DNA from: a virus
Lineage: Duplodnaviria > Caudoviricetes
Reading direction: 5' to 3' (one strand)
IMG/VR virus record: IMGVR_UViG_3300037160_000023
Coordinates: 1 to 51,934 of that record
Length of the DNA stretch: 51,934 nt
Positions 135 through 51,934 of the stretch are shown in pieces. The notes below the pieces were generated by a model, which was given only the letters and a program-made list of their open reading frames with translations, was not told the DNA's origin and searched no databases. How positions within the stretch are numbered: the stretch's first letter is position 1; each line of letters starts with the position of its first letter. The position numbers and the translations under genes are program-made.

Positions 135-595
135 TCCCACGGCATCCTACTCGCTTCACGCAAGGCCGGCTGCAGCTCATATTTCGCCAGCCTGGCGTTC
201 GCTTCACGCAATAGCATGTTTAAACCATCTATTTCTTGTTCCAGCGTACGGTTGATCGTGCGCAACGTTTCATCGGTGACAACATCAACCACGGCCGGCG
301 CATGCTGTACGGCGTCCGGCGCAACGGGGCGCGACGTACCGCCGCGTGAGCCAACGCCGCCTTTACGCGCTTCGCGGCACGTTGGGCAGTTGCGCAACAG
401 CAAGCCAGCGTTTTTCTTGAAACCCTGCAGCGCTGCCTTCGTAACGTCGATACGGATTTCTGCCTGACAGGTCTTGCAGGAACGCCGTACGCGGTACAGG
501 TGGACGAAGTTGCCGTTCCAATGTTTTGTGACGGGTTCGCCACCGCTCCAGCCTTCGGGCAGCTGGCCGGTGAACGGTTCAATTTGGTTGGTCAT
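131..595 (-). CDS. hypothetical protein with two CxxC pairs (Zn ribbon) and coiled coil; C-terminal MPWE
   Basis: 154 aa ORF with CKTC...CPTC and a heptad tail; coupled to neighbours by 4-nt overlaps. Confidence 0.75.
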   Translation of the reverse strand: MTNQIEPFTGQLPEGWSGGEPVTKHWNGNFVHLYRVRRSCKTCQAEIRIDVTKAALQGFKKNAGLLLRNCPTCREARKGGVGSRGGTSRPVAPDAVQHAPAVVDVVTDETLRTINRTLEQEIDGLNMLLREANARLAKYELQPALREASRMPWE

Positions 596-744
596 TTGGT
601 TTTAACTTTCTTCGGCTTTTTAATACCTAGTATTTCGTACGGAGAGCGCGGGCGCATTTCGAAGTGACCTAAATCGCGGGACTGTTCTTTATTGCGACGT
701 GTTGCTTCCTGTTTAGCTAACTTGTTGTTTACAGGTTTCGTCAC
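592..744 (-). CDS. small basic hypothetical protein
   Basis: GTG at 744 after AGGAGG; VTKPVNNKLAKQEATRR...KKVKTK. Confidence 0.55.
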   Translation of the reverse strand: MTKPVNNKLAKQEATRRNKEQSRDLGHFEMRPRSPYEILGIKKPKKVKTK

Positions 745-908
745 GCCCACCCTCCTAAAACAAAAACCAGCACACCCAGGAAGAACGCAGCGCCGGCAAC
801 AAGCACGGTGCCAACAATGATTTGCGCCGTACGTTTGCCGAATACAAACGCAATTGCTGCAACCAGCAACAGCGGACCCAAGCCGCCGTGTCCGTGATGG
901 TGGCTCAT
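741..908 (-). CDS. small membrane protein (2 TM)
   Basis: Not in the ORF track; translated by hand as MSHHHGHGGLGPLLLVAAIAFVFGKRTAQIIVGTVLVAGAAFFLGVLVFVLGGWA; overlaps both neighbours. Confidence 0.65.
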   Translation of the reverse strand: MSHHHGHGGLGPLLLVAAIAFVFGKRTAQIIVGTVLVAGAAFFLGVLVFVLGGWA

Positions 909-1156
909 TAGCAGCCCCCCACAACGAAACCGATACCTAGGCGGATGCCGACTTGGCCACCCCAGCGGACACCCATTTGTTTGATTGCATCCGTACGTGT
1001 CGGAGCGCTGATGGTTCCCACGATGATATCAAAGTAGAAGACGTGAAAAAGTTTCATTACATTTCCTCCGCCTTGTCCAGCAAATCCACGATCGCGTCCA
1101 GCGGCGTACGGTGCGTACATATCCTGCACCACAACGATTTCTTGCTGTGTGTTCAT
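908..1156 (-). CDS. hypothetical protein (start uncertain, 1156 or 1057)
   Basis: Fills the gap in a tightly packed minus-strand operon. Confidence 0.4.
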   Translation of the reverse strand: MNTQQEIVVVQDMYAPYAAGRDRGFAGQGGGNVMKLFHVFYFDIIVGTISAPTRTDAIKQMGVRWGGQVGIRLGIGFVVGGC

Positions 1157-1302
1157 GACAACACCAGAGCTGATAGCCGGGCGAACACTTCGCAAGCCGT
1201 GTTGTAGTCGTCTTCGTTCCACACCTTACGGCCGGCATTGCGCATTGACTTGTTTCCGGCGTCCTGTGCAGCGGCTCGGATGGTTGAAGGGGTTAAGGTC
1301 AT
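1153..1302 (-). CDS. small hypothetical phage protein
   Basis: MTLTPSTIRAAAQDAGNKSMRNAGRKVWNEDDYN...; preceded by GCTGGAGAG RBS. Confidence 0.65.
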   Translation of the reverse strand: MTLTPSTIRAAAQDAGNKSMRNAGRKVWNEDDYNTACEVFARLSALVLS

Positions 1303-50760: not shown

Positions 50761-50767
50761 TGCGGAC

Positions 50768-51352
50768 CTACCGCAGCGTGACTAAAACCGGCTTAAACGC
50801 CTTCACAATATCATTGCGTTGGCTTTCTTGTTCCGCGCTCGCCGCGCTCGCCGCGCTCCACGCCGCGCTCGCCGCGCTCGCCGCCGCGCTCGCCGCGCTC
50901 GCCGCCGCGCTCCACGCCGCGCTCGCCGCCGCGCTCGCCGCCGCGCTCGCCGCGCTCGCCGCGCTCGCCGCGCTCGCCGCGCTCCACGCCGCGCTCGCCG
51001 CCGCGCTCAAATCAACAGAATTGTCACCTTCGCACCAACGCTTAACTGCGTCGATGCAATCGGCTACCCTCTTGTCGGTTGTGTTCACAACAGCTCTGGA
51101 CGCAGCGAGCAAAACTACTGAACCAATTACGCGCCTGCGTACGGCCAAATCAGACCAATTCAGCACACGTACGCACCATAATGCGTCGGCAGCGTCGTTT
51201 GCTGTGGCTACGTCACCAAGCGAGATTAAAGCAGAGAGCGGTGTTTTCGGTGGGAGAGCTTTTCGAAGCTTTACCCAACCCGCTTCGCACGGGCCGGCAT
51301 CACGAATGCTTTGCAGCGTGAACAAAATCTTTTTGCGGTTGGGGTGGTTCAT
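50768..51352 (-). CDS. hypothetical phage protein with SAA/WSAA low-complexity repeat
   Basis: TLQSIRDAGPCEAGWVKL...DALW...(SAA)n...EQESQ. Confidence 0.75.
   Translation of the reverse strand: MNHPNRKKILFTLQSIRDAGPCEAGWVKLRKALPPKTPLSALISLGDVATANDAADALWCVRVLNWSDLAVRRRVIGSVVLLAASRAVVNTTDKRVADCIDAVKRWCEGDNSVDLSAAASAAWSAASAASAASAASAAASAAASAAWSAAASAASAAASAASAAWSAASAASAEQESQRNDIVKAFKPVLVTLR
50833..51008. repeat. in-frame tandem repeat of 9/12-nt units
   Basis: GCCGCGCTC units with GCC or CAC inserts, about 176 nt. Confidence 0.9.
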
Positions 51353-51402
51353 TGCAAATACTCCGCCCCTAAAAATGCCCGAGGCGCGGCAAGACGTTGT
51401 TC

Positions 51403-51934
51403 TTAATCCCAAGGCATCTTCGAAGTCAAGACGCTAGGGGTAGCGGTCGAAGCTATCCACAATAACAAGTCTCTGAATTCCGGTGGCGTGCCGATACGTG
51501 GTGCGCTGTTTGTGCCGCCGCCGCGTGCGGATACCTCCCCGATGCGCTTGGTTTTTGCCAGGCCGTACCTGGCGATCAACGCAGGGTCGTACTTGGGTGC
51601 GCTTTCCCCCCATCGCAGTTCTGGCAGTTCCGTACGGCAAGCAACGAGCCATGTTGGTTTTCGTGCGTAATGTCCGTATTGCCCTTGTTCAACGCAACAA
51701 GTCCACAGCCCGAAGTTGTCGGCTTTAACCCATCCGCCTTTACGCGGTGGTTTTTTCAATCCGAACCACTCCCAAGCATGGCTTCCTTTTGGGTGTTCCA
51801 ACACGCCGCCGTGCGTTCGCAGCGCAGCCAAGGCAGCTCGAAAACAACCATCATCATCGCCTTTAATTTTGCGCACGCCAGTATTTTTTATGACTAAGGG
51901 CGAGCCAGCGTAGAAATTGCCCCACCGCTGGCAC
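51403..51934 (-). CDS. 3' part of the junction-spanning C5-MTase-like protein; C-terminal MPWD
   Basis: CQRWG...GGVLEHP...QGQYGHYARKPTWL...RIGTPPEFRDLL. Confidence 0.75.
   Translation of the reverse strand, partial: CQRWGNFYAGSPLVIKNTGVRKIKGDDDGCFRAALAALRTHGGVLEHPKGSHAWEWFGLKKPPRKGGWVKADNFGLWTCCVEQGQYGHYARKPTWLVACRTELPELRWGESAPKYDPALIARYGLAKTKRIGEVSARGGGTNSAPRIGTPPEFRDLLLWIASTATPSVLTSKMPWD

Follow-up and report, generated by a model that had tools for sequence, protein, structure and literature searches.

The hexamer CGTACG, together with its core tetramer GTAC, is repeated far beyond expectation throughout the DNA of the IMG/VR virus record IMGVR_UViG_3300037160_000023, which was analysed over its full length of 51,934 bp (hereafter, the window) and which is, to judge from its genes, the genome of a tailed phage. 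The window contains 110 CGTACG and 351 GTAC sites. Their excess is independent of reading frame and strand, is inherited across a clade of related phages and has been exchanged, in a sister clade, for a respaced form of the same word; it has no methylase as a correlate, is absent from the sampled genomes of the likely host class and follows a gradient of gene age. The explanation that we tentatively prefer, at rather less than even confidence, is that CGTACG is a duplex-DNA word intrinsic to the phage, kept by selection and read by a putative factor of two-fold symmetry.

CGTACG is expected 15.5 times from base composition, 21.2 times from dinucleotides (order-1 Markov model) and 38.7 times at order 2. 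At order 1 it is the most over-represented of all hexamers (z 27; observed to expected ratio, O/E, 5.2), and 30 dinucleotide shuffles of the window gave 21.0 +/- 4.4 copies. Similarly, GTAC is the most over-represented tetramer, with 351 sites against 159 at order 1 and an O/E of 1.37 at order 2. When the hexamer is predicted from its own pentamers, in a maximal-order Markov model, 107.8 copies are expected versus the 110 observed. Sites continue to the very end of the record, the last CGTACG lying at 51631, and the density at its start (8 per 2 kb) is within the range of the other 2-kb bins.

Frame and strand were evaluated on 70 genes called with a home-made codon-model caller, which gives a coverage of 78-90% and on which the frame counts depend. 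Synonymous-codon shuffling within genes reduced CGTACG from 95 to 31.5-32.1 copies (z 13-14) and GTAC from 302 to 187 (z 11), while shuffling of the codon order left 21.6 of the same 95 hexamers; codon usage and amino-acid content are thus ruled out as causes. CGTACG is raised in all three frames (35, 36 and 24 sites, against 10.6, 18.0 and 3.5 in shuffles) and in genes of both strands, and its density is higher in non-coding (2.6/kb) than in coding DNA (2.06/kb). A preliminary description of this DNA, based on the letters alone, had counted, within the first 1.2 kb, six copies of CGTACG and twelve of GTAC, and had reported an enrichment extending over strands and frames: all six positions, listed in Table 1, and the twelve tetramers were recovered, and the enrichment proved to include non-coding DNA as well. 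Two of the checks that it had proposed, Markov-corrected word counts and the distribution over frames, gave the figures reported above, that is, neither a ratio near 1 nor an excess confined to one codon pair.

Phage genomes usually purge short palindromes, and the window makes no exception for other words: GGCGCC (0 sites against 37.8 expected), CACGTG (0 against 24.3), CCGCGG (1 against 38.9), GTCGAC (0 against 14.9) and GANTC (8 against 136.5) are absent or nearly so. In these genomes, 19-43% of the palindromic hexamers have an O/E below 0.25, versus 0.6-6% of the other hexamers. A squeeze exerted by restriction-site avoidance was ruled out as the source of the excess by a Markov chain of synonymous swaps, in which 39 avoided words were kept avoided: CGTACG fell from 110 to 39-52 copies, and GTAC from 351 to 228-254. 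Some non-palindromic words are avoided as well, namely GAGG and CCTC (49.5 each against about 133-240), CAGCAG/CTGCTG (5 against 22), CTCAG/CTGAG and CGAATC/GATTCG (1 against 13), which suggests that Type IIS or Type III-like systems exert a pressure, too.

The word is a lineage trait, inherited across the clade. A search of IMG/VR with the capsid protein retrieved 111 contigs, 80 of which, sharing 84-97% identity and many of them derived from genomes of 50-54 kb, were kept. In 55 of these 80 related loci GTAC ranks first among the tetramers. Counting the window, 67 loci have a length of 6 kb or more: 41 of them are rich in CGTACG, 14 are of the B type described below and 12 are weaker or classified as "other". 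Five complete relatives (G001-G005), with core proteins 50-75% identical to those of the window, were compared in full. Two of them share its word and are, like the window, of the A type: CGTACG is found 119 times in G001, the highest count, against 18.6 expected, and 74 times in G002, against 22.9. The other three avoid it, with 1, 0 and 1 copies in G003, G004 and G005, against expectations of 14.0, 15.9 and 12.0, respectively.

In the latter three genomes, which represent the B clade, a different word has been accumulated, CGNTANCG, i.e. CG-N-TA-N-CG, present in 106, 122 and 104 copies in G003, G004 and G005, versus 14-18 in dinucleotide shuffles (about seven-fold), with z values of 12-15 relative to synonymous shuffles. 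It is raised in the two frames that the amino acids permit, and its density in non-coding DNA is proportional. Typical forms are CGATAGCG, CGATACCG, CGGTACCG and CGATATCG, and the B-clade word mostly lacks GTAC. Both CGTACG and CGATCG have been purged in this clade (0-2 copies each); GGTACC, neutral in the window, is enriched six-fold, an excess which is explained, like that of GATATC in the same genomes, by these hexamers being sub-forms of CG-N-TA-N-CG. On a quick version of the capsid tree, all 14 B-type loci fall within one clade of 24 rows (Shimodaira-Hasegawa-like approximate likelihood ratio, SH-aLRT, 91-93), and the switch between the two words therefore looks like a single evolutionary event.

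The primase-helicase formed by Prim-Pol and AAA_25 domains is the only DNA-transaction gene for which a change was observed at the node where the word switches. It is 68-73% identical in G001 and G002 and has no match in G003-G005, where its counterpart features an unrelated N-terminus, followed by AAA_25 and a weak winged-helix match. All 28 relatives retrieved by a Prim-Pol search were found inside the same phage clade, and the B-type gene retrieved its own contig only. This change appears to be a correlate only, and one confounded with phylogeny.

The core of the word is GTAC, preceded by C with a frequency of 0.55-0.57 and followed by G with a frequency of 0.54; a weaker C at -2 and a weaker G at +2 extend the consensus to CCGTACGG. 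The two immediate flanks are independent of each other (P = 0.55 each, 110 sites against 107.8). Variants differing in one outer letter are raised (O/E 1.7 for AGTACG, 2.1 for GGTACG and 2.9 for TGTACG), in contrast to those differing in one inner letter, which are at or below expectation, at 0.3-1.3 (0.6 for CATACG, 0.5 for CCTACG, 0.32 for CGCACG). On the coding strands CGTAC and GTACG are equally frequent (169 versus 165), indicating that the feature is a symmetric one on duplex DNA. Counts per kb are Poisson-like (GTAC mean 6.78, variance 6.25), and neither a preferred spacing, except for overlapping GTACGTAC, nor any obvious helical or 3-bp periodicity was detected in the window. Further palindromes centred on TA are in excess, too: TACGTA (20 against 7.6), TGTACA (20 against 8.7) and GATATC (19 against 4.6). 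Depleted words include CGTGCG/CGCACG (O/E 0.32), CGCGCG (0.55) and CATATG (2 against 7.5) and, mildly, GTAT/ATAC (order-2 O/E 0.72).

The extent to which available positions are occupied can be read from dipeptides. In the window, 45% of the 77 Arg-Thr dipeptides are written CGT-ACG, versus 12% from codon fractions, and 58% of Val-Arg are written GTA-CGN, versus 17%; where Ser, Pro, Thr or Ala is followed by Tyr and by a codon beginning with G, 64% of the cases read NCG-TAC-G. Occupancy of the same dipeptides by CGTACG is 35-71% in G001 and G002 and 0-10% in the B clade. The force reaches protein sequence, since Arg-Thr is about twice as common in the A-type genomes (77, 70 and 54 dipeptides) as in those of the B type (39, 38 and 33): dipeptide content has changed about two-fold relative to the sister clade.

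Retention of the sites was measured in 12 pairs of relatives, with 83-97% nucleotide identity, and corrected for base and codon position. CGTACG is retained 1.55 times as often as expected (232 sites against 149.4; rank 18 of 1681 hexamers) and CCGTAC 1.60 times (rank 6 of 1681), the mean over all words being 1.10 with a standard deviation of 0.19. Turnover was polarised by an outgroup in six triplets: GTAC is mostly exchanged with GCAC/GTGC, which account for 18 of its 23 gains and 21 of its 37 losses, and GTAT/ATAC contribute 3 gains and receive 12 losses.

Genes differ in their content of the word according to their distribution. Those shared with relatives contain 2.1-2.9 CGTACG/kb, 3.2-3.3 times the shuffle value, and 0.04-0.09 GANTC/kb, versus 0.99 CGTACG/kb, 1.85 times the shuffle value, and 0.59 GANTC/kb in the 21 genes found in the window only, tail fibre and methylase included. 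The signature thus seems to be acquired with residence time in the lineage. An island poor in the word is formed by the tail-fibre gene and two small genes downstream: GTAC is reduced to 3.4/kb in 17699-21526 and is absent from 21523-22139, and no CGTACG falls in the bins from 18 to 22 kb. Relatives match the tail fibre only over its N-terminal 4-6%.

As for the host, the relative G002 (L130:4754-5251) encodes a homologue of the cell-cycle regulator GcrA (E value 4.7e-36), a protein not known outside Alphaproteobacteria; the nearest genomic homologues, 37-56% identical, belong to metagenome-assembled genomes of Hyphomicrobiales. On the strength of this gene, of the virtual lack of GANTC and of a methylase resembling CcrM, we infer Alphaproteobacteria as the likely host class. 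CGTACG occurs at 0.06-0.12/kb in the five Hyphomicrobiales assemblies with the nearest GcrA homologues and at no more than 0.29/kb in 401 genomes drawn evenly from Alphaproteobacteria (two of them, G050 and G250, are unpublished; neither is an extreme, and no conclusion depends on them), versus 2.1/kb in the phage; in nearly all of the 401 it is rarer than the reversed control GCATGC. Host mimicry was not detected in this sample, no genome of the likely host class, itself presumed, coming near the phage density. A short open reading frame (ORF) adjoining the GcrA gene of G002 has a weak C5-methylase-like match.

Taken together, these observations lead us to infer selection, rather than biased repair, as the force at work and a protein as the reader of the word. 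According to this preferred reading, a directional force of the phage lineage would place the word at about half of the positions that the amino acids permit, and in non-coding DNA, and would be strong enough to make the dipeptides Arg-Thr, Val-Arg and X-Tyr-G more numerous; in genes of recent acquisition the word would build up only with residence time. The force would be selection favouring a high copy number of a site that is read on duplex DNA, and the reader a two-fold symmetric factor other than the methyltransferase of the window. In the sister clade CGTACG would have been purged, presumably under a BsiWI-like restriction enzyme, and CG-N-TA-N-CG would have assumed the same role at about the same copy number. 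Three points favour selection for a word that is read: its context is wide, protein sequences are affected, and a respaced word has replaced it at the same copy number.

A number of points weigh against this reading. No reader protein has been identified, and the flanks of GTAC are independent, while a strictly hexamer-specific dimeric reader should correlate them. Selection and bias alike should, at equilibrium, lead to high conservation of an over-represented word; furthermore, polarised gains of GTAC do not outnumber losses (23 against 37), and its turnover is average among tetramers (rank 30 of 70). At deep divergence, 50-75% protein identity, 68 positions are shared over six genome pairs, against 50.4 under independent filling: this near-independence suggests that density or copy number is maintained, not particular positions, and, individual positions being unimportant, the same outcome would be expected from a neutral bias dependent on context. 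Since the A and B words seem to have been exchanged once only, whatever correlates with the exchange is confounded with phylogeny. Finally, the host is a presumed one, and the test on its class covers Alphaproteobacteria only.

Some of these points would be accommodated if the word had no function in itself and were the neutral footprint of a context-dependent bias of mutation or repair, an explanation that we consider unlikely, and yet one to be reckoned with because of the independent flanks, the Poisson-like spread and the nearly independent filling of orthologous positions. The bias would originate from the family-A polymerase, the DUF2800 and VRR-NUC nucleases and the SNF2 helicase of the phage itself, and would turn near-cognate sequences into CG-TA-CG or restore them. 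A non-coding density at least equal to the coding one, the slow amelioration of recently acquired genes and the prevalence of the transition pair GCAC/GTGC <-> GTAC in the exchanges are also in agreement with it. It accounts less well for a context spanning 3-4 bp on each side of TA, wider than usual mutational contexts, for a respaced word at the same copy number in the sister clade, hard to obtain mutationally, for the two-fold shift in dipeptide content and for a site retention in the top 1% of hexamers; moreover, no glycosylase, deaminase or Vsr-like gene was recognised in the protein scans of the window.

A bolder proposal, which we regard as rather improbable, would make CGTACG a "self-word" of the phage: a dense mark of the lineage on duplex DNA, by which a phage-encoded protein of two-fold symmetry would tell phage from host DNA, for example in priming, packaging or protection from nucleases of the phage itself or of the host, the half-site spacing having moved from CG-TA-CG to CG-N-TA-N-CG once a host restriction enzyme had made CGTACG lethal. 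In none of the genomes sampled from the likely host class does CGTACG reach more than one seventh of its density per kb in the phage. If this proposal holds, the primase-helicase swapped at the node of the switch would be the first candidate reader.

The reading put forward in the preliminary description, that a GTAC or CGTACG methyltransferase of phage or host, coupled to methyl-directed or very-short-patch repair, drives the enrichment, has to be regarded as improbable to a somewhat greater degree. Six-frame searches of the window with PF01555, PF00145, PF02086 and PF02384 identified one methylase gene, where two had been supposed; no second one was found with PF00145, PF02086 or PF02384, nor by Pfam scans of the 70 ORFs. 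The gene belongs to PF01555, a presence that would suit such a reading, and its product is predicted to be a beta-class N6-adenine/N4-cytosine enzyme, with CcrM as nearest solved relative; the best matches in PDB and NCBIfam are to CcrM, far below the equivalog cut-off, and the matches assign no specificity. The gene is itself poor in the motif (0 CGTACG and 3 GTAC, a low density) and rich in GANTC, containing four of the eight sites of the genome. Homologues are absent from all five complete relatives, and the gene looks recently acquired. The relative richest in CGTACG, G001, has no match to PF01555, PF02086 or PF00145, the three families for which the relatives were searched, and the same is true for G005; a C5-methylase match was obtained for G003, weak ones for G002 and G004 and none for the other relatives, and no further methylase family was detected by Pfam among the 77 non-shared ORFs of at least 100 amino acids of the relatives. 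Of 41 other viral loci with homologues of the window methylase, 36 show no CGTACG excess, and the remaining five exceed an O/E of 1 on only 1-3 sites each. The methylase of the window was accordingly rejected as the cause; a host enzyme may still be involved, but the 401 and the additional five sampled alphaproteobacterial genomes accumulate no CGTACG.

Very-short-patch repair raises the palindromic site of a methylase genome-wide, as happens in E. coli, where CCWGG is over-represented through Dcm and Vsr, and predicts depletion of the T-variants and a net flow from them. The mild depletion of GTAT/ATAC is in line with this prediction. In contrast, the outer T-variant TGTACG/CGTACA is enriched (O/E 2.9, versus 0.6 for CGTATG/CATACG), and the 3 gains from GTAT/ATAC against 12 changes in reverse are the opposite of the predicted flow, which was not seen; neither a C5-methylase nor Vsr was found in the window. 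The likeness to the highly iterated palindromes (HIPs) of cyanobacteria, in which alternate words come with a cognate methylase according to parts of Elhai (2015, PMC4390886), speaks for a methylase. Overall, the preliminary description holds as regards the HIP1 likeness and the choice between a repair bias and a protein-binding code, and is not supported as regards the tie to a phage methylase.

GANTC is the word of CcrM and HinfI. Its eight sites in the window are at 14414, 20933, 21731, 26497, 43603, 43875, 43956 and 44159, of which the methylase gene contains four and the region of the tail fibre two. Members of the clade either lack GANTC almost completely or possess about half of the expected sites, as does the GcrA-encoding G002 (87 against 175); each of the two states forms clusters on the capsid tree. 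Among the loci with a methylase homologue, an unrelated IMG/VR contig (L004) of 32% GC contains no GTAC in 20.7 kb, against 22 expected, presumably by avoidance of an RsaI-like enzyme.

Selection for a physical property of the DNA, and not for a specific reader, is slightly less probable again. The TA step would act as a hinge between CpG steps, deformable or easily unwound, helping packaging, ejection or the gyrase or topoisomerase of the host, and any CG-(N)-TA-(N)-CG arrangement would serve. The occurrence of two spacings in sister clades with equal copy numbers (about 100-120 per genome), the lack of positional specificity and the excess of the other TA-centred palindromes listed above, and of GTTTAAAC (see below), are all compatible with this possibility. 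However, variants of similar flexibility are depleted, as reported above for CGTGCG/CGCACG, CGCGCG and CATATG, and mechanics alone would not be expected to give a specificity such as that of GGTACC, neutral in the window and six-fold in the B clade.

Ordinary composition, be it codon usage, amino acids, dinucleotides, site avoidance or host mimicry, is a very remote explanation: although the maximal-order Markov expectation equals the observed count, and several GC-rich viral loci unrelated to the clade have a GTAC O/E of 1.2-2.0 under the dinucleotide model, it is contradicted by the synonymous and codon-order shuffles (z 13-16), the excess in non-coding DNA, the avoidance-constrained chain, the densities in the sampled host-class genomes and a CGTACG O/E of 0-1.2 in 39 of 41 unrelated viral loci, versus 5.2 in the window, the two exceptions, L005 and L037, reaching 2.0 and 4.1 on 2 sites each.

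Among known systems, HIP1 (GCGATCGC) is the closest, and the comparison drawn in the preliminary description is apt. Both are short palindromes found in all frames and between genes, many-fold above expectation and inherited within a lineage, and, as for cyanobacterial HIPs, a related lineage has replaced the word by a different one. One-letter variants of HIP1 are concentrated at the outer positions, as stated in passages of Elhai (2015, PMC4390886), and so are those of CGTACG. HIP1 sites exceed control words in their conservation from one related genome to another, and their enrichment is 15-300-fold, according to Xu, Lawrence and Durand (2018, PMC5861425). CGTACG sites are retained above the mean of all words at 83-97% identity, and at 50-75% protein identity shared positions only slightly outnumber those of independent filling; the phage word, of 6 bp with a 4-bp core, is enriched only about five-fold. 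Other differences are that the carrier is a phage and not a cell, that no cognate methylase accompanies the word in the phage genomes, and that positions are not conserved at deep divergence. The quasi-periodicity of HIPs spans 10-90 kb, whereas the phage genome is 52 kb long and its sites are Poisson-like at the 1-kb scale. The word is thus HIP-like, and is not filed here as a HIP.

Chi-like recombination hotspots are asymmetric, co-oriented words, over-represented in the host chromosome. Such a role was rejected, because CGTACG is a palindrome, its two halves CGTAC and GTACG are in parity on coding strands and the hexamer is rarer than GCATGC in nearly all sampled genomes. Avoidance of restriction sites in phages has been described, in the parts considered here, by Rusinov et al. 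(2018, PMC6286503) and for HF1-group haloviruses (PMC7230728): the extreme purging of palindromes in the same genomes, and the treatment of CGTACG by the B clade, are of this kind, while CGTACG in the window runs in the opposite way. A GTAC core is also shared with the operators of Phd/YefM-family antitoxins, dimeric proteins which, in the sections of Kedzierska et al. (2007, PMC1802561) dealing with them, read paired palindromes such as TGTACA, 12-13 bp apart. In the window, however, GTAC pairs at distances of 11, 12 and 13 bp number 2, 2 and 0, against 2.4 expected per distance, the Pfam scans detected no Phd/YefM domain, and, unlike these operators, the B-clade word is mostly without GTAC.

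No report of an enrichment of GTAC or CGTACG in phages was found in the full text of open-access papers and preprints, supplements being outside the scope of the search. The case is of interest because a clade that purges palindromes to an extreme degree pushes one of them to about half-saturation, even altering its proteins. It offers a compact counterpart to the unsolved problem of HIP1, with genomes of about 50 kb, two natural states of the word, no confounding methylase and a gradient of gene age; identification of a reader, or proof of a repair bias, would account for a powerful influence on the composition of phage genomes that has not been reported so far. The word may also be used as a marker of recent gene acquisition and of host restriction history in uncultured soil phages.

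The window is a complete phage record in one contig (CheckV completeness 99%, GC content 56%), whose DNA is present in two listed public runs, stored as contigs and with metagenome labels of permafrost and peat; no RNA run with it was listed. Neither megablast nor tblastn with the tail fibre retrieved cultured relatives, and the nearest GenBank phages reach at most 37% identity in the capsid and 29% in the polymerase, so that no cultured phage appears to be close. The features in Table 1 were identified by Pfam scans of all 70 called ORFs, PHROG matches and six-frame profile searches. The VRR-NUC-like protein has PHROG matches to endonucleases and Holliday-junction resolvases, and no Pfam match at E 0.01; its assignment is based on the motif "GVADF...IELK", which we take to be typical of VRR-NUC/PD-(D/E)XK nucleases.

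Table 1. Sites, regions and genes of the window (positions in bp; a dot marks features without strand)
Feature	Position	Strand	Details
Genome-wide field of GTAC (351) and CGTACG (110)	39-51636	.	Site counts and positions
Six CGTACG sites at 245, 486, 636, 828, 992 and 1105	245-1110	.	
Word-poor island: tail-fibre gene and two small downstream genes	17699-22139	+	GTAC/CGTACG density
Tail fibre, 1275 amino acids	17699-21526	+	Peptidase_S74 chaperone domain at C-terminus (Pfam)
Large terminase	23796-25445		
Major capsid	30890-31822		
Portal-region protein	33418-34884		PHROG label "head closure Hc3"
VRR-NUC-like nuclease, core protein, 162 amino acids	35731-36219	-	Fold assigned from motifs
Family-A DNA polymerase	38063-40021	-	
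DUF2800 nuclease	41930-42868	-	
PF01555 methyltransferase	43501-44304	-	Pfam, E 8.8e-44
SNF2-type helicase	44273-45943	-	
Prim-Pol + AAA_25 primase-helicase	48691-50760	-	Pfam
1323-amino-acid protein			Transglycosylase segment
GNAT acetyltransferase			

A second iterated palindrome, GTTTAAAC, is found 12 times in the window, against about 0.9 in dinucleotide shuffles, at 218, 4400, 4635, 8971, 13353, 26883, 30833, 32547, 38822, 42427, 45145 and 49074. Four of these sites (4400, 4635, 8971 and 13353) are intergenic, and there is no longer context in common. Among the relatives, G001 contains 16 copies, against 1.0 expected, and the other four contain 0-2. Within the structural arm of the genome, a 357-amino-acid product encoded at 11019-12092 on the plus strand has a sub-threshold match to Wzy_C (O-antigen ligase), with an E value of 2.5e-6 and 27.8 bits against a cut-off of 31.7.

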